From the NCBI GenBank assembly GCA_963665095.1, contig OY762069.1, forward strand, positions 1,920,001 through 1,984,000: a stretch of 64,000 bases of DNA. Reading direction: 5' to 3'. Positions 43,975-56,297 of this stretch are shown piece after piece. The number at the start of each line of letters is the position of its first letter. The first letter of the stretch is position 1. Source of the DNA: an uncultured Desulfobacter sp. Lineage in GTDB: Bacteria > Desulfobacterota > Desulfobacteria > Desulfobacterales > Desulfobacteraceae. The position numbers were made by a program, and so were the translations under genes. Below the pieces are notes generated by a model that saw only the letters and a list, made by a program, of their open reading frames with translations, did not search any database and was not told where the DNA came from.

Positions 43975-44100
43975 AATTGACCCAATAAGCATTAAAATTT
44001 TTGGGCTCCTTGAAAAATGATATCAAGGAGCCCAAATGACTTGTTTTTCAATTTCCCAAACGACAGAACCCTGAATTTTAAGGTTCTCCTGTCCACTGAA
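43975..44100 (+). mobile_element. degenerate 5' fragment of an IS4 related to the intact copy at 47156
   Basis: AAAATTTTTGGGCTCCTTGAAAAATGATATCAAGGAGCCCAAATGAC aligns with 47241-47287. Confidence 0.65.
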
Positions 44101-46701: not shown

Positions 46702-47080
46702 TTAAATAGGCGTTTTCTGGAGGTCTCGGACATATACGGATACCGGTTTATTCCATCCTTTGACCATGATTGGGGCATCACAAGGCAGGATGGATAATAC
46801 TCCGGGGTCCTGTTTCAGGTTGGAAATGGTCTGCTGGGAAATGATCATGGCCACATCCAGGTCCCGGGTTTTTGCCTGGAGGCGTGAGGCCAGGTTCACC
46901 GTGTCCCCCACCAGAAGGTATGAGAGCCGGTTGGGGCTGCCGATATTGGCGGCCAGGACCTGGCCTGTGTGGATGCCGATGCCGTGGGAGAGGCTGGGAA
47001 GCTGTTTTTCTTTGAACCTTTTGTTGAGTTCAGCAAGGCGAGATTCCATATCCAGGGCGGCACTCACCGCATTGGACGCA
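46702..47080 (-). pseudogene. adenylate/guanylate cyclase C-terminal fragment interrupted by a transposon; continues at 51498-51537
   Basis: GIGIHTG, Y.LVGDTVNLASRL, VKG; across the element the frame reads AVFGAPVSDPRDA-SNAVSAALDM. Confidence 0.85.
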
Positions 47081-47155
47081 TGTAGATTCCCGAAATAATC
47101 TGAACAAAAACCCGCCAAATTTTTCATATTAAATTGACAAAGTTCCATTTTTCTC

Positions 47156-48465
47156 CAGTAGTGTCCGGTTAGGTTGTTGCATATAAAAAATATCTAAAAT
47201 TATTCAAAAAACGTCATTTTTATGTTGACAAATGTGCGTAAAAATTTTTGCGCGCCTTGAAAAATTTTATCAAGGAGCCCAAATGACGCGCATTTCAATT
47301 ACCAAAGCCATAATATCGTCCCTGAATTTTGACAAGTTCCGTAACCCTCTGATAAGGTCGCTTCCACAAGCACCAGAATTGCAATCTCGAGGAGACCGAC
47401 CTTTAAAAATGACATTCGAAGACCAGATAAATGCCCTGATTTATTTTCATCTGCAGGAACACAAATCAGCCCGGCATTTAGTCCAAGATCTCAAGGAAAA
47501 TATTTTTGCCAAAGAACATATTGCTCCGGAAGGCGGTATCAGCCGCAGCAGCTTTTGTGAAGCAGTCAACCACCGAGGGCTTGAACAACTGCAATTTGTC
47601 TTCGAAGATCTTTATAAACAGGCTGTTGGGTGCCTGCCAAAGGAGCATGCCGAGTTGGGCGATCTGGTTTCCATTGACGGCAGCCTTATAAATGCCGTCC
47701 TTTCAATGCATTGGGCAAACTACAGGAAAGGAAGTAAAAAAGCCAAAGCGCATTGCGGATTTGACATAAATCACGGCATTCCAAACAAAATATTCCTGAC
47801 AGAAGGCAACGGCGGGGAGCGCCCTTTTGTCCCAAAGATACTTACCGAGGGGCAAACAGGTGTTATGGACCGTGGCTATCAATCACATCACGATTTTGAC
47901 TTGCTACAGGCACAAGGCAAGCATTTTGTTTGCCGTATAAAAGCCAAAACAACCAGAACGGTAATTGAGACTCACGAGGTCAACTATGGCAGCTACATTT
48001 TCTATGATGCTCTGGTCTTCCTTGGCACTCCGAACCTGAACCAGACAAAAACTCCCGTCCGGGTTGTTGGCTATAAAATTGCCGGCGTGAAATACTATGT
48101 AGCAACTGACAGGCATGATTTAACGGCAGAGCAAATAGCAACCATATATAAGCTCCGGTGGACCATTGAAGATTTTTTCAAATGGTGGAAAGGACACCTG
48201 AAAGTTTACCACCTCATTGCCCGCAGCGAATATGGCCTTATGGTGCAAATCCTTAGCGGCCTCATCACGTATCTGTTGCTTGCAATCTACTGTCGAAACG
48301 AGTTTAATGAAAAGGTTACTATTAAAAGGGTTCGGCAGTTACGAACAGCCATCTTGAATGATCTGATTGAGAGCAACAATGATGCTTTTCACGGTTCAAA
48401 CAGAGACAATATTGTCAAAGATCAAAAAATTACTGAGCAAGCAAAAACCTAACCGGACACTACTG
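47156..48465 (+). mobile_element. intact IS4-family insertion sequence (1310 bp)
   Basis: 20-bp perfect IR CAGTAGTGTCCGGTTAGGTT; 9-bp TSD ATTTTTCTC (47147-47155 / 48466-48474). Confidence 0.95.
47283..48452 (+). CDS. IS4-family transposase
   Basis: SIDGS, VMDRGY, YKLRWTIEDFFKWWK (YREK-type motif). Confidence 0.93.
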   Translation: MTRISITKAIISSLNFDKFRNPLIRSLPQAPELQSRGDRPLKMTFEDQINALIYFHLQEHKSARHLVQDLKENIFAKEHIAPEGGISRSSFCEAVNHRGLEQLQFVFEDLYKQAVGCLPKEHAELGDLVSIDGSLINAVLSMHWANYRKGSKKAKAHCGFDINHGIPNKIFLTEGNGGERPFVPKILTEGQTGVMDRGYQSHHDFDLLQAQGKHFVCRIKAKTTRTVIETHEVNYGSYIFYDALVFLGTPNLNQTKTPVRVVGYKIAGVKYYVATDRHDLTAEQIATIYKLRWTIEDFFKWWKGHLKVYHLIARSEYGLMVQILSGLITYLLLAIYCRNEFNEKVTIKRVRQLRTAILNDLIESNNDAFHGSNRDNIVKDQKITEQAKT

Positions 48466-48591
48466 ATTTTTCTCAAATTATCCTGTACAGGTTCTGATCA
48501 AAGCATTCTGACAAAAATGAAAAGGGCGAAAAGCTTTGCAGAGCCTCGCCCTTAAGACCGGGATTTATAAAATCCCAAAACAACCATAAAA

Positions 48592-49038
48592 ATGATAATA
48601 AAGGTCAAAGCTGATATCAAGCAAATTTTCAAGCAGGGCAAAAATTTTACATGGCCAAAACCGTCACGATGTCCACATTGCAACGACTCCAGGCTGTGGG
48701 GACACGGCTTTGTACTCTCCTTTTTTGATGGATTTGATCAAGGGGTGTATTTGAAGCGATATCGCTGCCCCTATTGCAAAACCGTATTCAAATTGAAGCC
48801 ATATGGTTTTTTCAAGAGGTTCCAGGCCAGTATCTGGCAAATCCTTACCAGCATTATGAGTCGTCTATACACAGACCGGTATCTGCCGGAACTCTCCTGG
48901 AGTCGACAGCATTTTTGGTTTACTGCATTGAAACGAAATATAGCGGCCTACCTGTCCAACAGTTGGGACAAAGGTGTGGTTGCTGGTTTTATCAAGCTAA
49001 TCGGTATGGGTAAAATCCCGGTTACCAGTTCAATTTAA
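48592..49038 (+). CDS. Zn-ribbon accessory protein of E1 (DUF6431-like)
   Basis: CPHC..LWGHG..RYRCPYC..LKP.F. Confidence 0.7.
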   Translation: MIIKVKADIKQIFKQGKNFTWPKPSRCPHCNDSRLWGHGFVLSFFDGFDQGVYLKRYRCPYCKTVFKLKPYGFFKRFQASIWQILTSIMSRLYTDRYLPELSWSRQHFWFTALKRNIAAYLSNSWDKGVVAGFIKLIGMGKIPVTSSI

Positions 49039-49141
49039 CCATGGGGCTGGATCAGGTTTAAACCACCCTACCGAAGGCTGTGATTTACCGAAGGATCATA
49101 CTGTCATACAAGCCCTTAGAACCAAATTTTAAGGAGGAAGT

Positions 49142-50398
49142 ATGACAGAAAATCAGAAAAAAGAGGTTGCCGTGTTCAGGTTTGGGGTCATTTGTGAATT
49201 TGTGACCGGAATAAATTTTGATTACGGTGAAAAAGAACGAATTTTACAGCAGAAGTGCGCCCGCAAATGGTCCATCCCGTATTCTGGAAGGACCAGGCTT
49301 TCCAGAAGTACGATTCTGGGATGGGTCCGGCAGTATAACGGTCGAATAGAGTCTCTTTACCCCAAAGACCGTTCAGACCAGGGAAAATCAAGGGTATTCG
49401 ATGACGAGACTGCATCTCAACTAATCAAACTCCGGTTAGACCAGCCTGATGCGACAGTCGATACATTGATCTGTTCACTTCAAAAAACTACATGCCAGAC
49501 ATACAGTCCATCCAGTGTATACCGTTTTTTACGCGGCCGGGGGCTAATGAACACGGCCCGGCCAGAGGATAGAAGAAAGTTTGAAGCCCCGCACCCCAAT
49601 GATATGTGGCAAAGCGACGTCATGCACGGCCCTACAGTCCTGGTTCAGGATAAGCAAAGAAAAACGTACCTGATTGCCATTATGGACGATCATTCCAGGC
49701 TGGTTACGGCTGCAGGTTTTTATTTATCTGAGAATCTGAAGACCTATCTTATGGTGCTGGAGCAGGCTTTTTTGAGCCGTGGGCTTCCCCGCAAGCTGTA
49801 TGTAGATAACGGTCCTGCGTTCAGATCCCATCATTTAAAATATGTAGCAGCGTCTCTGTCCATCGCTTTAATCCATGCAAGGCCATATAAGCCCCAGGGG
49901 AAAGGTAAAATCGAGCGCTGGTTCAGAACGGTTCGGCTTCAGTTTCTGCAAAGATTTACAGGTAAGACCCTGGATGATCTGAATGGGGCATTTGAGAAGT
50001 GGCTTCATAATGAGTACCATCAGCGTAAACACAGCTCCACAGGCGAATCACCGTTTAAAAGATTTACCTCGGCCATGGAGTGCATCCGTACCGCCCCACC
50101 GGATCTGAAAGACCACTTCCGCAAAACCGCCCGGCGCAAGGTGGCAAAGGACCGAACCATCACCCTTGACGGCAACATGTTTGAGGCCCCGGTTGCGCTG
50201 ATCGGCAGACATGTGGATGTAAAGTACCATGAGGACACCCCTTTGCAGGCTGAAGTTATCTATAAAGCAAAGTCTTATGGCTTGTTAACCCCGGTGGACC
50301 TTGCTGTGAACTGTCGGGTCAAGCGGCACCGCTGGAACGAAAATGATATCCGGATTATGCCTGAACCCTCAAATTACAAGGGAGGGCAACTGTTATGA
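49142..50398 (+). CDS. DDE integrase/transposase (IS481/Mu-like, rve core)
   Basis: WQSD, DDHSR, LYVDNG, PQGKGKIERWF, Mu-like C-terminal domain. Confidence 0.92.
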   Translation: MTENQKKEVAVFRFGVICEFVTGINFDYGEKERILQQKCARKWSIPYSGRTRLSRSTILGWVRQYNGRIESLYPKDRSDQGKSRVFDDETASQLIKLRLDQPDATVDTLICSLQKTTCQTYSPSSVYRFLRGRGLMNTARPEDRRKFEAPHPNDMWQSDVMHGPTVLVQDKQRKTYLIAIMDDHSRLVTAAGFYLSENLKTYLMVLEQAFLSRGLPRKLYVDNGPAFRSHHLKYVAASLSIALIHARPYKPQGKGKIERWFRTVRLQFLQRFTGKTLDDLNGAFEKWLHNEYHQRKHSSTGESPFKRFTSAMECIRTAPPDLKDHFRKTARRKVAKDRTITLDGNMFEAPVALIGRHVDVKYHEDTPLQAEVIYKAKSYGLLTPVDLAVNCRVKRHRWNENDIRIMPEPSNYKGGQLL

Positions 50399-51204
50399 GT
50401 GAAATGTATCGTACCTTTTTTGGCTTATATAGGGAGGCCTTCCCGGCGCAGATAGAAATCAATGATATCCTGGTCACCCCGGAGGTCTCGGGCGTTAAAA
50501 ATCGGATTGATTATTCCTTAAGACTTGGCTGCAGTGCGGTTATCACAGGGGATGTGGGCAGCGGAAAGTCCACCGCCTTAAGGTATGCCGCCTCATCCCT
50601 ACACCCTTCGGAATACAAAGTCTTTTATGTTACGGCCTCAAGCGGTTCCATCATGGAACTTTACCGGCAGATTGTTGAAGAACTGGGCATAGAGCGGACA
50701 TCGACGTCCCGCGCTGTTATGATCTCCATTATTAAAAATGAAATACGTGAATTCGTCCTGGGAAAAAAGATCAAAACCGTTTTGATTATAGATGAGGCAT
50801 CTCTGCTTCGCATGGAAGTCTTTGCCGAACTTCACACCCTGGTTCAATTTGAAAAAGACGCCATGCCCTGGCTGCCTGTGATCCTTGCAGGTCAGCCGAC
50901 ATTGATAGATAAGCTTCAGTACCGGACGTCAATCCCGTTTGCATCCAGGATTGTGGCTAAAAGCCATCTGGATGGTCTGGATGTGGCTGGAATGAAAACT
51001 TACCTGATCCATCATTTAAAACTATGCGGCGTTGACACCAACTTTTTTTCTGACCAGGCGGTGACTGCGATTCATCAAGGCTCCGGCGGCCTTTTACGAA
51101 AGGCGAATAATCTTGCCAGAGGCTCATTGATTGCTGCTGCGGCAGAAAAATCAATGACGGTATCTGCAGAGCATGTCCGCATTGCTTCATCGGAGATTTT
51201 TTAA
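50395..51204 (+). CDS. ExeA-like AAA+ ATPase (transposition helper)
   Basis: GDVGSGKST Walker A, IIDEA Walker B, ILAGQ; ATGA overlap with the integrase. Confidence 0.9.
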   Translation: MSEMYRTFFGLYREAFPAQIEINDILVTPEVSGVKNRIDYSLRLGCSAVITGDVGSGKSTALRYAASSLHPSEYKVFYVTASSGSIMELYRQIVEELGIERTSTSRAVMISIIKNEIREFVLGKKIKTVLIIDEASLLRMEVFAELHTLVQFEKDAMPWLPVILAGQPTLIDKLQYRTSIPFASRIVAKSHLDGLDVAGMKTYLIHHLKLCGVDTNFFSDQAVTAIHQGSGGLLRKANNLARGSLIAAAAEKSMTVSAEHVRIASSEIF

Positions 51205-51235
51205 GAAAAAACAGCCATAGAGCAGAATATTACGA

Positions 51236-51414
51236 TTTCGGTGAAACGGAGCCGGGCTCTGCTGAGGAGCAACCTGGTAAGGGATAGCCGGAAGCAGGCA
51301 GCATTGAATAATGCGCCAGGGGAAGTGGGGATTACCTGCTTCCCCTTTCTGCTTTATTCAAGCTGTTCTGCCTATGCCTTAAAAACCTACTGAGAAGGAG
51401 CGCAGCGACTTCTG
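51236..51414 (+). ncRNA. candidate structured RNA in the E1 right-end region
   Basis: homologous to 55650-55835 with compensatory changes; two-hairpin fold. Confidence 0.55.
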
Positions 51415-51539
51415 TAGCTGTCTTAAATAATATGGAAAAGATTTAATCTGTTCAAAATAATTAGAAAATTTAAGTCAGGATAAAATGCGACTCAACAACG
51501 CATCCCTGGGGTCAGACACAGGTGCGCCAAATACCGCAT

Positions 51540-52032
51540 AAATTTCATCACCTAAGAATTATATTACCGCAAAAAAGCTTCATGAAATGCTTTCACAAAA
51601 AGGTCTGATTGGAGACCCGCCCATCCATTACAATACACTGCTGTGTATCGTTAAAGAAGAGCAGTTACTGGCTTTCGGGAACAAACGCCGGGATGTGCGG
51701 ACCAGCTTTGAAACCGATCATGTCAACTGCCTTTGGATCGGCGATTTCATGCATGGTCCCCTGGTGACTATAAACCGGAAAATGCACAAGGCCATATTAT
51801 GTGCGATTATAGATGACCACAGCCGGATGATTGTGGGACACGCCTTTGCCTCCACAGAGACAGTCCTTTCCCTGACCCTGGTATTGAAAGATGCCTTTCT
51901 GGCTTTTGGATTTCCGGAACGTCTTTATGTGGACAATGGAGCATCTTTCAGCTCTGATTTTCTGGCCAAAACCTGCGCCTTGTCCGGCATATCACTGATT
52001 CACTCCAAACCCTATGATTCACCTTCCCGAGG
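51540..52032 (+). pseudogene. internal fragment of a third DDE integrase of the same family
   Basis: LWIGDFMHGP, IDDHSR, LYVDNG, HSKPYDSPSRG, then a break. Confidence 0.8.
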
Positions 52033-52510
52033 TTATGGAAAGTTAGCTGTTATGTAAAGTTGAATAGAAAGAGCTGCTTGGGATATAGGCGACAGCATTG
52101 AGTTACTTTTCATAATAATCCGATCTAATTTTAGGTGATTAACCCAAAATAGATAGGAGATTATGAAATGGAAACAAAACAATTACCGGCGTCAGAGCTA
52201 TTCAAGCTCAGTAAACATCCTGGCCCTGAGGGCCAGGCTTTGGACTGCCCCTAAAAGGGGCTTAGTATGCCTTGCCTCCTGAGGAGGCAAGGACGGTTGT
52301 CCCCACCGTTTATTATTTATTGAACAAATCTCTTTGTTCGGCTCTTCTCTCTTTATTCTCTTGGTGCTTTACTGAGAATGATCACAAAAAATCATGGAAA
52401 AATTAAAGATAATTTGCAAGATATGCCAGGGATGAGGCAGAAGCTCCCCCGTTTATCTCGCAAATAATCAATGGAACTTCTGCCCCTATTACCCTAACAG
52501 GGCAGGAGAT

Positions 52511-53086
52511 ATGCTATCAGAACTTATTAAAAACAAAAATCTTTTTTTCCATCTTTACGAAATCGATAAAAATACAGCAAAACAGTACAGACAGTTGCCT
52601 TGTCCGCATTGTGGAGGCCCCTTATATTTCAGCAATTACATGCGCAAGCCCCGGGGAGAGCCTGAGGGCGTGCCGGAGGAATTCTTTATTCAGTTCAGCC
52701 TATGTTGTGGAACCGAAGGGTGTCGCAAAAGATTGATGCCGCCGTCCTGCCGTTTTCTGGGGAGAAAAGTCTACTGGTTTGCAGTTATTCTGTGTGTTTT
52801 AACAGACTGGCAAAATACCAATGAAAAAATCACCGTTTATGATTTGTCCATACGAACTGGCATTAGCCGGAACACAATAAACCGCTGGCTTGCCTTTTTT
52901 CAGGATACATTTCCAGTGAGCCGAACCTGGCGAAGGCTTCGGGGGCAGATATCCGCTGGTGTCAGTAACAGCCGTCTGCCGTCAAGTTTCATCAATTATT
53001 GCCGGGCGGTGAAATCCAACGCCGAAAACGCACTTGTATCAAGCCTGATAATCTTATCAGGCGGGTCCAAAATCAGGGCCGGATAA
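52511..53086 (+). CDS. Zn-ribbon/HTH accessory protein of E2
   Basis: CPHCGG..Y.RKPRG..SLCC..GCRKR..PPS.RFLGRKVY; HTH ISRNTINRW; AGGAG RBS. Confidence 0.75.
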   Translation: MLSELIKNKNLFFHLYEIDKNTAKQYRQLPCPHCGGPLYFSNYMRKPRGEPEGVPEEFFIQFSLCCGTEGCRKRLMPPSCRFLGRKVYWFAVILCVLTDWQNTNEKITVYDLSIRTGISRNTINRWLAFFQDTFPVSRTWRRLRGQISAGVSNSRLPSSFINYCRAVKSNAENALVSSLIILSGGSKIRAG

Positions 53087-53192
53087 TCTCGCGCAGAGGA
53101 TGAACATAGACAAATATATGCAGGCTGTTTTACCACCTGATTTCAGACGTTGATCCGAAATTTTAACCTGAAATTAAAAAGGAGCCTGATTT

Positions 53193-54638
53193 ATGAGTGG
53201 TAAAACACAGCACCCGGCAGACCTGTGGGCATTATTTCGCTTTTCGGTTATCGGCGGTTTACTGGCACGCCCTCCGGCAAAGGGAGAGTTGCAAAATGAA
53301 CTGACCCGGCTCGCAGGTCAAATCTATTCTCATCCTGTGACGAACAAACCGACCTGTTTTCATTTTTCCACAATTGAGGCCTGGTATTACAGGGCAAAAA
53401 ATTGCCAGGACCCAATTCTGGCTCTGGGCCGTAAAGTTCGTTCAGATATGGGCAAATCCACAGCATTGAATGCTGAATTGATCCGCCTTCTTGGTGTCCA
53501 GTACAACACTTATCCGCAATGGAGCTATCAGCTTCATTGCGACAACCTGGCAGCTGAAATCGCTGAACAGGGCCTGTGTGAGAATCCGCCGTCCTATGCA
53601 AGTGTGAGAAGGCGTATGGTTGAACGGGGTTGGAGAAAAAAGGCTTCCAAGAACAAAAATCAAACATCCGGACAGAAATCAGCTTTTAAGCGATTAGAAA
53701 CGTATGAAGTCCGTAGTTATGAAACCGAAAACATCCATGAATTATGGCATCTGGACTTTCACGAATGCAGCAGGCGCGTGGTGGACGAAAAAGGTCAGTG
53801 GCATACGCCCAAGGCATTGTGCATTCTTGATGATCGCTCCCGTCTGTGTTGTCATATTCAATGGTATTTGAATGAAACGGCAGAGGTTTTGATCCACGGC
53901 TTGTCCCAGGCGTTTTACAAAAGAGGGCTTCCCAGAGCCTTGATGACAGATAATGGTTCTGCCATGATTGCTCATGAAACCGGCAACGGACTTAAACGAT
54001 TGGGCGTCAGTCATGAGACCACGTTGCCATACTCGCCCTATCAAAATGGGAAGCAGGAAGCCTTTTGGGGTACACTTGAAGGCCGTTTGATCGCCATGCT
54101 GAGCCGGATGGATTCTTTGACCCTGGTATATTTAAATCAGGTCTCCCAGGCCTGGATCGAGATGGAATACAACAAGTCAACCCATGATGAAATTCATATG
54201 TCGCCATTGCAATGCGCCCTTGACGGCAAGGATGTGTCACGTCCTGCACCGGAACCTGAACAGCTTCAATTTTCGTTTACAGCCTGTGAATCCAGAAAAC
54301 AGCGTCTGTCCGATGGTACCATCTCTTTGATGGGCATCCGGTTTGAAATCCCTTCACGGTTTAATCATATCCAGCGTCTTCATGTCTGTTTTTGCTCCTG
54401 GGATAAATCGGTTGCCTGGCTGATAGATAAACGAACCGGAAATAAGCTTGCCGCAATTTATCCCCAGGACAAGACAAAGAATGCTTCAGCAATCCGTCGT
54501 ATCAAATCCACTCCGGATGAAATTAACCCTGGCCATGAAACCCTGTCCGGATCAGAACCGGCCCTGCTTAAAAAGCTCTTGTCCGATTATGCAGCAACCG
54601 GAATGCCTTGTGCCTACTTGCCAATGGAGGAAAAGTGA
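53193..54638 (+). CDS. DDE integrase/transposase (IS481/Mu-like)
   Basis: WHLDFH, LDDRSR, MTDNG, PYQNGKQE. Confidence 0.92.
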   Translation: MSGKTQHPADLWALFRFSVIGGLLARPPAKGELQNELTRLAGQIYSHPVTNKPTCFHFSTIEAWYYRAKNCQDPILALGRKVRSDMGKSTALNAELIRLLGVQYNTYPQWSYQLHCDNLAAEIAEQGLCENPPSYASVRRRMVERGWRKKASKNKNQTSGQKSAFKRLETYEVRSYETENIHELWHLDFHECSRRVVDEKGQWHTPKALCILDDRSRLCCHIQWYLNETAEVLIHGLSQAFYKRGLPRALMTDNGSAMIAHETGNGLKRLGVSHETTLPYSPYQNGKQEAFWGTLEGRLIAMLSRMDSLTLVYLNQVSQAWIEMEYNKSTHDEIHMSPLQCALDGKDVSRPAPEPEQLQFSFTACESRKQRLSDGTISLMGIRFEIPSRFNHIQRLHVCFCSWDKSVAWLIDKRTGNKLAAIYPQDKTKNASAIRRIKSTPDEINPGHETLSGSEPALLKKLLSDYAATGMPCAYLPMEEK

Positions 54639-55462
54639 TGAACAGCAAACGATTATTGGCTTATTATGGATTGAAGTACAATCCTTTTTTACCAAATATT
54701 CCTGTGGACTCATTATGGCATCCACCCCGGATGGAGGCATTTATTACACGCCTTGAAAATATGACCATGAACGGTGGATTTGCATTAATCGCCGGTGAAC
54801 CCGGTCTTGGCAAATCCAAGACACTACAGGCGATTGCCCATCAGCTTGGCAAGCTTGATGAAGTCGTTGTCGGCGTTATGGAGCGCCCCCAAAGCAGCGT
54901 GGCCGATTTCTATCGGGAAATGGGGACACTGTTTGGTGTCAATTTGAGTCCGGCCAACCGTTACGGAGGGTTCAAAGATCTGCGGCAACGATGGAAAAAT
55001 CATATTAAAACAACCCTGTTCAGACCCGTCCTGCTCATTGATGAGGCTCAGGAAATGCTTACCGGATGCCTGAATGAGCTTCGGTTGCTCAACAGTATGG
55101 ATTTTGACTCCCAGAATTTATTGACCACCATTATCTGTGGTGATACCCGGCTGCCGGAACGGTTCAGAACCAGTGCATTGGTAGCCCTGGGGAGTCGACT
55201 CCGGTTCCGGTTAAAATTGGATCCTTATACCCGGGAAGAATTGTTGGATTATATAGCGCATTGCCTAAATCAGGCCGGAGCTCCTCAACTCATGACAAAA
55301 CCTTTAATCACCGCTTTGGTAGAGCACTGTACAGGAAACTTACGGGTCCTCAATAATATGTCGGCAGAACTGCTTGAAGTGGGCGTTCAAAGAGAGCTGC
55401 CGCAACTGGATGAGAAACTTTTCATAGAGCTTTTTTCACTGAAACCGTCGCCAACCAGATAA
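54638..55462 (+). CDS. ExeA-like AAA+ ATPase
   Basis: GEPGLGKS, LIDEAQ; TGATG coupling with the integrase. Confidence 0.9.
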   Translation: MNSKRLLAYYGLKYNPFLPNIPVDSLWHPPRMEAFITRLENMTMNGGFALIAGEPGLGKSKTLQAIAHQLGKLDEVVVGVMERPQSSVADFYREMGTLFGVNLSPANRYGGFKDLRQRWKNHIKTTLFRPVLLIDEAQEMLTGCLNELRLLNSMDFDSQNLLTTIICGDTRLPERFRTSALVALGSRLRFRLKLDPYTREELLDYIAHCLNQAGAPQLMTKPLITALVEHCTGNLRVLNNMSAELLEVGVQRELPQLDEKLFIELFSLKPSPTR

Positions 55463-55473
55463 GAGGTATAAAA

Positions 55474-55716
55474 ATGACAATCAATGAAACACAACTTGAA
55501 AAAACAATGGCTGAAATTGTCGACGAGCTGGGCAATCTGGTCATGGAGTTGATCCTTGTCAGTTTAAAAAAAATAAACTCGGAAAATCATCTTTTGACAG
55601 AATTGCTGGAGATCAAACAAGAGGAACAAAGAGAAAATGAATTTTATGGTTTTGGTGAAACGGAGCCGGGACATCCTGGGGAGGAAACCCGGCAAGGGAT
55701 AGCCAAAAGCAGGTAG
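55474..55716 (+). CDS. small hypothetical protein of E2 (80 aa); 3' end overlaps the candidate RNA
   Basis: GAGG RBS, helical acidic sequence, directly after the ATPase. Confidence 0.5.
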   Translation: MTINETQLEKTMAEIVDELGNLVMELILVSLKKINSENHLLTELLEIKQEEQRENEFYGFGETEPGHPGEETRQGIAKSR

Positions 55717-55835
55717 CATTGAATAATGCGCCGGGGGAAGCGGGGTTGACCTGCTTCCCCTTTCTGTATTATTCAAGCTTTCCTGCTCATGCCTTAAAAA
55801 ACCCAATAAAATCAGTCGGAGCGCAGCGACATCTG
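55650..55835 (+). ncRNA. candidate structured RNA in the E2 right-end region
   Basis: homologous to 51236-51414 with compensatory changes. Confidence 0.55.
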
Positions 55836-55913
55836 CTAATCATTGAAAATACAGTTATGCCTTTCCCTGATTTATCCTGATTGTCGCTCCATTGATTATC
55901 GTGCTTCCTCTCA

Positions 55914-56297
55914 CTTTACATATTTTCTAATCATCTCAGAATCCAAACCAACTGTATCGACACAATACCCTCGTGCCCAAAATTTGTTACCCCAATAGGG
56001 CTTAGACTTCAGCTGCCTGAATTTACTGAACACCCTTATTGCAGTTCTGCCCTTCAGAGTCCCAACGTAATCTGATATCGACCCCTTCGGTGGAACCATT
56101 GCGAGCAAATGAACGTGATCTGTTTGCACATTCAGTTCCATAACCTGGCACCCCTTCTGCTCCGAAAAGGCTCTGATACAGTTTCCCACCTCATGCCCTA
56201 CTTCCCCTGTTAGTATCCGAAATCTATATTTCGGAACCCATACGATATGGTACTGACAATGCCATATCGTTTGTGATAATTTCTGAAATCGGCTCAT
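55914..56297 (-). pseudogene. tnpA: IS200/IS605 TnpA (HUH Y1 transposase), interrupted; last codons lie at 52313-52366
   Basis: YHIVWVPKYR, DHVHLL, FWARGY, IRKYV; continues HQENKERRAEQRDLFNK* beyond E2. Confidence 0.88.

Follow-up and report, generated by a model that had tools for sequence, protein, structure and literature searches.

Copy-out transposition of bacterial insertion sequences (ISs) includes a replication step that converts a strand-bridged intermediate to a double-stranded circle; the account in PMC7780238 ascribes this step to host machinery and also treats promoters that form at IS junctions on circles. On plasmids, single-strand origins of the ssoA type (pT181, pC194) carry the elements RSB and CS-6 (PMC6395029, PMC8860593, PMC5703833 and PMC10378824); RSB is reported to be needed for RNA polymerase binding (PMC8860593), and single-strand origins to be host-restricted (PMC5703833). 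The ssiA signal is described in PMC3167613. Here we compare with these systems a block of about 155–190 nt that lies in two ISs, E1 and E2, within a 64,000-nt window of an uncultured Desulfobacter sp. (contig OY762069.1, positions 1,920,001 to 1,984,000). An earlier note on this DNA had read the block as a structured RNA of one transposon family. It proved to be a real motif, richer than first read, whose existence and structure are well supported. The block likely acts on the circular intermediate, and our leading guess, offered tentatively, is that it is a priming signal for second-strand synthesis during copy-out.

A conserved pseudoknotted module

E1 and E2 encode divergent proteins, with 27.6% identity between their DDE transposases, 22.6% between their ATPases and zinc-ribbon proteins that cannot be aligned, whereas their blocks share 80% identity over 197 nt, as the earlier note had noticed. 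Both blocks lie on the forward strand where that note had placed them, and their stems pair as it described. The parts follow in the order P1, a purine-rich internal loop, P2 and P3 with a four-base loop; P4 enclosing P5; a tail of ATGCCTT, an A-run of variable length and CCC; and a small cap hairpin. In E1, the 5′ domain (51236–51293) comprises P1 (51236-42/51287-93), the internal loop (51243-50/51279-86), P2 and P3 with the loop GAGG (51264-67). The long stem P4 (51294–51371) encloses the terminator-like hairpin P5 (51319-45), and the tail (51374–51389) holds ATGCCTT, predicted to pair with the internal loop, then the A-run and CCT, which pairs with the P3 loop by a compensated change; the cap hairpin (51393–51413) contains GAGCGCAGCGA at 51398-408. 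The E2 block has the same layout: a 5′ domain (55650–55708) with P1 (55650-56/55702-08), internal loop, P2 and the P3 loop GGGG (55678-81), P4 (55709–55786) with a terminator-like P5 (55734-60), a tail (55789–55805) of ATGCCTT, A-run and CCC, and a sequence match to the cap motif GAGCGCAGCGA at 55819–55829. The second long hairpin of the earlier note corresponds to P4 in both elements. Its apical stems, TGCT-GAGG-AGCA and TCCT-GGGG-AGGA, were also confirmed, and the one-base indel that it reported is located there. Folding z-scores were −4.5 for E1 and −5.3 for E2, and none of 200 shuffles was equally stable.

The internal-loop strands GAAACGGA and AAGGGATA are common to E1 and E2. Described earlier as invariant, this loop is nearly but not fully so, both strands being exact in 35 of the 64 long copies. 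In L327 (loci and genomes are given by our own L and G labels), an extra hairpin sits between P2 and P3 (3100-3290), and the P2/P3 junction thus tolerates insertions.

Conservation of the block is explained by structure rather than by codons, as first proposed: base pairs covary, and no shared small frame was seen by inspection. The accompanying statement that E1 lacks a start codon here does not hold, since a 50-codon GTG frame spans its block, but by inspection this frame is not conserved in homologues. A type I toxin-antitoxin system was rejected for want of a shared frame, because the sequence of P4/P5 is fully replaced in several copies and because orf4, the small fourth gene of E2, is optional.

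Covariation was assessed on homologues, as the earlier note had advised. Among 34 homologues aligned with MAFFT, 31 of the 45 named pairs had changed on both sides, compared with 6–15 pairs in slid controls and in none of 500 shuffles. With 74 model-fitted homologues, an alignment that leans towards structure, 43 of the 45 pairs covaried. Cells with G-U outnumbered those with A-C by 201 to 35, which fixes the strand of the structure. Beyond the nested stems, the apical loop of P3 pairs with the downstream CCC to form a pseudoknot, and 10 of 12 loop changes are compensated overall, E1 being one case. Within the 64 long copies, six of the eight non-G letters in this loop were matched by a complementary change, a result reached by 0 of 200,000 permutations (relatedness ignored); at further loci (L283, L284, L286 and L290), all four loop changes were compensated. 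L010 and L169 are exceptions, and L161 and L124 have changes in the partner only. Judged by tree and inspection, the compensated changes represent about seven separate events. A second long-range pairing, between AGG-G-AU of the internal loop and AU-G-CCU, has thinner support (L144, L170 and L285); in the nested fold of E1 it can take the place of P1. The pseudoknots and the tail, like the split form described below, go beyond the earlier note.

That the block belongs to no known family was borne out by Rfam 15, in which the best match over the block reached 16 bits with an E value above 1; eight divergent loci gave one chance microRNA match (34 of 86 bits). The cores of signal recognition particle RNA, RNase P, 16S rRNA, TPP, SAM-I, cobalamin, twister, hairpin and hammerhead RNAs were also compared and rejected, with no Rfam support for any. 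A self-cleaving ribozyme that trims transcripts at IS ends would account for two long-range pairings, a conserved core with variable peripheral stems, and independence of context and orientation. However, no Rfam ribozyme matched the block beyond chance, no known catalytic core was recognised by eye, and dedicated promoters at P1, a terminator in the middle and host restriction would not be expected; we regard a ribozyme as very unlikely. Full-text literature searches found no description of the motif, although supplementary motif tables (e.g. of PMC5737381) could list it if it was never added to Rfam. The orphan motifs drum, skipping-rope, ARRPOF, GEBRO and PAGEV, as presented in PMC5737381, were likewise found by covariation, have 3′ terminators or plasmid links and are of open function; the block differs from them in lacking an Rfam match and a fixed neighbouring protein.

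Several signs in the sequence suggest that the block is transcribed as RNA. A sigma-70-like site ends 5–7 nt before P1 in 12 of the 14 copies that do not lie behind a transposon gene on the same strand, compared with 3 of 60 others; this simple scoring was our own, the classes were set by context after the sequences had been seen, and the settings number perhaps seven independent ones. Terminator-like P5 hairpins occur in E1 and E2 and, over the whole set, in 39 of the 64 long copies and 9 of the 10 short ones. Seven copies have UNCG loops in P5, which lies downstream of the conserved 5′ domain, as it would in a riboswitch or attenuator. The cap, by comparison, is a GC-GNA-GC triloop, a form that is stable in DNA rather than RNA. 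Folding energies and z-scores do not separate the two, and PMC5737381 states that RNA and single-stranded DNA are hard to separate by computation.

A passenger in unrelated insertion sequences

The block is not tied to one transposon family but is a passenger in several unrelated ones, contrary to its first assignment to a zinc-ribbon/DDE/ATPase family. A search with the E1 ATPase returned 78 loci, of which 12, at 84–89% identity, carry the block and 66 do not; the 66 include many repeats of a single element and some truncated loci, and 11 of them also lack a model match. The 40 long copies behind an ATPase gene fall into eight ATPase clusters, and blocks are up to 90% identical where the ATPases share 22–23%, which means that the block was swapped between subfamilies and not co-inherited. 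Recent recombination, which the earlier note had listed as an alternative to selection on structure, is true as history but leaves the covariation unexplained. A plain cassette for termination or stabilisation, passed between IS ends by recombination and without a special role, would be in keeping with this exchange, with the terminator-like P5 and with the persistence of broken and half copies. Nevertheless, such a cassette would not account for a 3-bp pseudoknot compensated in about seven lineages, for new promoters or for conserved split tails, and we consider it the least probable explanation.

Outside the E1/E2 type, the block lies within IS3, ISL3, IS110 and IS256-variant elements. In ISL3, it forms the 5′ leader of the transposase gene and is common to two copies; in IS3 elements it sits between the gene and the right end. 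One IS110 group has it 3′ of the gene (three copies), and a second has it in antisense orientation, where a sister copy carries other DNA at that position. In the IS256 variant, whose boundary we placed by its end repeats, it is antisense at the element end. Neighbouring IS701-like and IS4 elements lack the block, and four copies (L165, L169, L170 and L174) are not assignable to an element. A small GC hairpin, GGGGC-N3-7-GCCCC, occupies the slot after the IS110 gene in L261 (G066:C133), where the sister IS110 has the block; the same hairpin replaces the cap in L170 and stands at the right ends of the block-less relatives L016, L020, L059, L065 and L067.

Carrier enzymes comprise DDE transposases of four kinds and IS110 recombinases. 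As these are unrelated, a scaffold for the transpososome of one transposase, among the roles first suggested, is unsupported. A guide RNA of the bridge, seek or omega kind, another suggestion, was rejected: the block is identical in all copies whereas the targets differ. The longest target and donor matches were at chance level, random sets equalled the fixed-offset result in 4 of 40 and 3 of 40 cases, two 10-nt matches and one 9-nt match at E2 sites fall on different parts of the block, and there is no single cognate protein family. What stands of the functional non-coding RNA first proposed is a probable transcribed RNA, without the guide, the single-transposase scaffold or the family membership.

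In G000, the genome that holds the window copies of E1 and E2, all 27 full blocks lie within copies of these two elements and none is dispersed outside ISs, and a REP-like genomic repeat was rejected on this ground. The block was found in 49 of 151 genomes of the family. Strong scores were obtained in 17 of 151 genomes of the order (32 at E 0.01) and in 2 of 151 of the phylum; of 81 genomes around one outlier, 6 have the block. When viral and metagenome sequences were scanned by pattern, 12 and 11 loci emerged, none of the 23 scoring with the model, and there was no real match in phages and plasmids. In L227, a degenerate copy immediately precedes the gene for an RNA ligase of the RtcB family.

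Such lineage restriction, together with own promoters, the conserved purine-rich internal loop, the pseudoknot and the absence of a partner gene in cis, would suit a trans-acting small RNA, stable and perhaps resistant to RNase J, whose binding to a host protein, such as one silencing or destroying mobile DNA, would aid any IS that carries it. The host has RNase J and CsrA. A CsrA sponge is nevertheless unlikely because the GGA motifs vary, and neither the split form nor the DNA-type cap is explained; a trans-acting role therefore appears improbable to us, if less so than a ribozyme.

Split copies and a possible role on the circular form

In L118 and L310, which come from two host families and have ATPases with 75% identity, the module is divided: the 5′ half and P5 lie inside the right end of the element, and the 3′ arm of P4, the tail and the cap lie inside the left end. 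This order is the reverse of what insertion into a block would leave. When the ends were joined in silico, the core of P4 paired across the junction with a probability of 0.88–1.0, and the split point coincides with the site at which unsplit copies tolerate inserts. The left-end tails of L118, L310 and L242 are 87–93% identical, compared with 58–65% for the DNA preceding them, and G308 has both halves, on separate contigs. Since a module divided in this way would be whole only on the circle junction, the block likely acts on the circular form. Assembly of a function from both IS ends upon circle formation is familiar from the IS110 bridge RNA. Seek RNAs and the junction promoters treated in PMC7780238 resemble the split block in this respect; unlike the bridge and seek RNAs, the block has no target or donor matching and no dedicated protein, and among IS110 carriers it is optional, inserted next to the non-coding region that the element itself has. 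The left terminal repeat of L118 (3947-3975) contains a near copy of the 3′ strand of P2 with an internal-loop strand.

Position and orientation of the block vary between the left and right ends and between strands, which would matter little on a circle. The circle-forming families listed in bioRxiv 10.1101/2023.06.07.543989 include all the named-family carriers (IS3, ISL3, IS110 twice and the IS256 variant); IS481 is unnamed in the list as given there.

One way to act on a circle is as a leader. On the circle, or at the left end of ISL3, the block would lie upstream of the transposase gene as an RNA attenuator or antitermination element, with P5 stopping transcription by default and read-through causing a transposase burst. 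The frequency of terminator-like P5 hairpins and their UNCG loops, the promoter-like sites before P1, the leader position in ISL3 and the split tail just before the first gene all point in this direction. By contrast, no covarying antiterminator helix was seen by inspection, the pseudoknots can form only after P5 has been passed, and in one IS110 group and the IS256 variant the block is directed towards the transposase gene and runs into its 3′ end. Nor is an antisense promoter conserved (2 of 62 copies). Position counts against a riboswitch or attenuator: the block is 5′ of a gene only in ISL3 and a few others, and is consistently so only if the circle is counted. We rate the leader as unlikely, though less so than a trans-acting RNA.

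Priming of the second strand fits more facts than its rivals, in our tentative view. A priming signal read by the host could stand anywhere on the circle, and so would be useful to any circle-forming family, work in either orientation, be splittable, host-bound and optional. If the 5′ half is transcribed, be it from the operon or from the block's own promoter, the RNA would end or pause at P5. When displacement has released the transposon strand as a single-stranded circle, the tail, with its ATGCC, A-run, CCC and cap hairpin, could dock on the 5′ domain, as RNA-RNA, RNA-DNA or DNA-DNA. A primer would then be made or extended by host RNA polymerase, the PriA primosome or both, much as happens at the single-strand origins of plasmids; the host has priA. 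The module would then be an optional booster tuned to the host lineage, outside any transposase reaction. A bolder form of this proposal, which we think doubtful, is a portable priming device common to unrelated ISs, in which the pseudoknotted transcript docks on the element's own displaced strand, the whole being completed at the junction in split versions and amounting to an element-encoded second-strand origin.

Likeness to ssoA bears on the priming proposal. Both the block and ssoA of pT181 and pC194 are folded single strands of ~160–200 nt with ATGCC and an A-run, both have (T)AGCGA further downstream in that strand, and both are orientation-bound and host-restricted. RSB of pT181 and pC194 folds with the same unpaired G inside TAT-G-CC, in the same register and followed by an open A-run, as in the tail; against the RSB consensus TTTATGCCGAGAAAA, ATGCC, the A-run and this G are shared and the middle bases differ. 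A 16-nt likeness of the E1 tail to a second pC194 site may be chance. The block differs from ssoA in lying within ISs and in having two hairpin domains with a pseudoknot, upstream promoters and RNA-type loops. Membership of ssoA was rejected, because the long hairpin closed by RSB with CS-6 in its apical loop is missing and NAGCGA sits in a separate small hairpin, with T at N in only some copies.

The primer RNA of ColE1 together with ssiA/n′-pas offers a second comparison: a promoter, a folded transcript and an A-run are followed, on the transcript-sense strand, by an 11-nt motif identical to that of the cap. This motif, GAGCG(N)AGCGA, occurs ~140 nt past what we take to be the ColE1 origin motif, presumably as part of ssiA, and directly before what we take to be the pC194 nick-site motif. 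The block likewise has the motif downstream of the A-run on the transcript-sense strand, though some lineages lack the cap; the distance is 15–25 nt instead of ~140, no G-run precedes the A-run, and the block is not a replicon. An antisense control RNA of the ColE1 type was rejected: a search for a conserved antisense promoter found a significant one near the 3′ end in those 2 of 62 copies only. G000 has two copies of the cap motif outside the 27 IS copies, with about 12 expected.

A number of observations count against both the circle and the priming role. Both halves are present together in only two elements, perhaps through a single ancestral event, and the agreement between split arms does not count as independent evidence because every one belongs to the same variant. 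In L326 the tail is decayed and the 5′ half missing, and L284, of the same subfamily, is unsplit; L327 has the 5′ half with its left end cut, L328 has neither half, and tail-only copies are common (five in G113). No circle junction was found among the joints listed from contigs of four runs, in which rare forms drop out, 66 loose ends and 378 pieces lying outside the listing. Circle formation by E1/E2-type elements is itself predicted, from TG...CA ends, variable duplications and an ATPase helper. Roughly half of IS families form circles, by our estimate, which makes the family pattern weak when taken alone, and a block-less relative occurs at >20 near-identical loci of one genome. As for priming, the RSB strand is 5′ of its partner in ssoA whereas the ATGCC strand is 3′ of its partner in the block, a profile search gives no match to ssoA, and the cap is absent in L274-L278, L286 and L290. 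The likeness to RSB was noticed after the fact and covers about a dozen bases, and that of the cap is also short and after the fact. Finally, single-strand origins consist of DNA, but UNCG loops, the G-U bias and the promoters suggest RNA.

Copy-out-paste-in is a major route of bacterial IS movement, and a signal picked up independently by several families would give a direct handle on its replication step. Even if priming is wrong, the block remains a new motif with a pseudoknot, whose covariation is unusually clean and which also exists naturally in split form.

Carrier elements and their surroundings

E1 and E2 are recently mobile DUF6431-like/DDE/ATPase insertion sequences, all features of which are on the forward strand. 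E1 (47081–51497; 3098 bp without a nested IS4-family element at its left end, 47156–48465) has TG...CA ends and is present in 14 copies in G000, of which 13 have a target duplication of 4–5 bp, in which ATGG or its complement is favoured. Its genes encode a DUF6431-like zinc-ribbon protein (48592–49038), a DDE transposase that is IS481-like at 208.7 bits, below the cut-off of 224 (49142–50398), and an AAA_22 (ExeA-like) ATPase assigned by domain match (50395–51204). The zinc-ribbon protein had no Pfam match over the cut-off, and its assignment comes from Atlas neighbours (0.96–0.97), with PF20020 on 41–90% of members. E2 (52373–55913; 3541 bp) has TGAGA ends and 13 full copies in G000, 12 with a duplication of 3–7 bp. 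It encodes a zinc-ribbon/HTH protein (52511–53086; frame and domain scan), a DDE transposase (53193–54638; IS481-like by domain scan, below cut-off), an AAA_22 ATPase (54608–55462; frame and domain scan) and orf4 (55474–55716), the 3′ end of which overlaps the 5′ domain of the block and for which family searches gave no family. Empty sites of both elements are present in contigs of run X5. E1 and E2 resemble IS21/IS481-type elements in their DDE transposase with an AAA+ helper, TG...CA ends and variable target duplication; they differ in falling below the NCBIfam cut-offs for both, in the ExeA-like ATPase and in the extra DUF6431-like gene.

Several further features surround the two elements. 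Between them lies a remnant of a third DDE subfamily (51587–52057, forward strand), 42% identical to the E1 enzyme, which ends where runs X4 and X5 show a joint. On the left, E1 interrupts an adenylate/guanylate cyclase-domain gene (46702–47148), the listed frame of which begins within the E1 left end, and a 60-nt stretch at ~44000 (44000–44059) is 83% like the left region of the IS4 element (47247–47306). On the right, E2 lies at the 3′ end of an IS200 TnpA frame (55911–56297, reverse strand), and the adjoining 194-codon frame is multi-copy. Small acidic fourth genes of several unrelated sequences occur 3′ of the ATPase gene, before or after the block, in many family members, among them the window copy (55474–55716) and L012, L015, L061, L172 and L274-L278. 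Elsewhere in G000 (C1, near 3464860), an E2 copy is flanked on both sides by copies of one repeat, which we take to be CRISPR-like.

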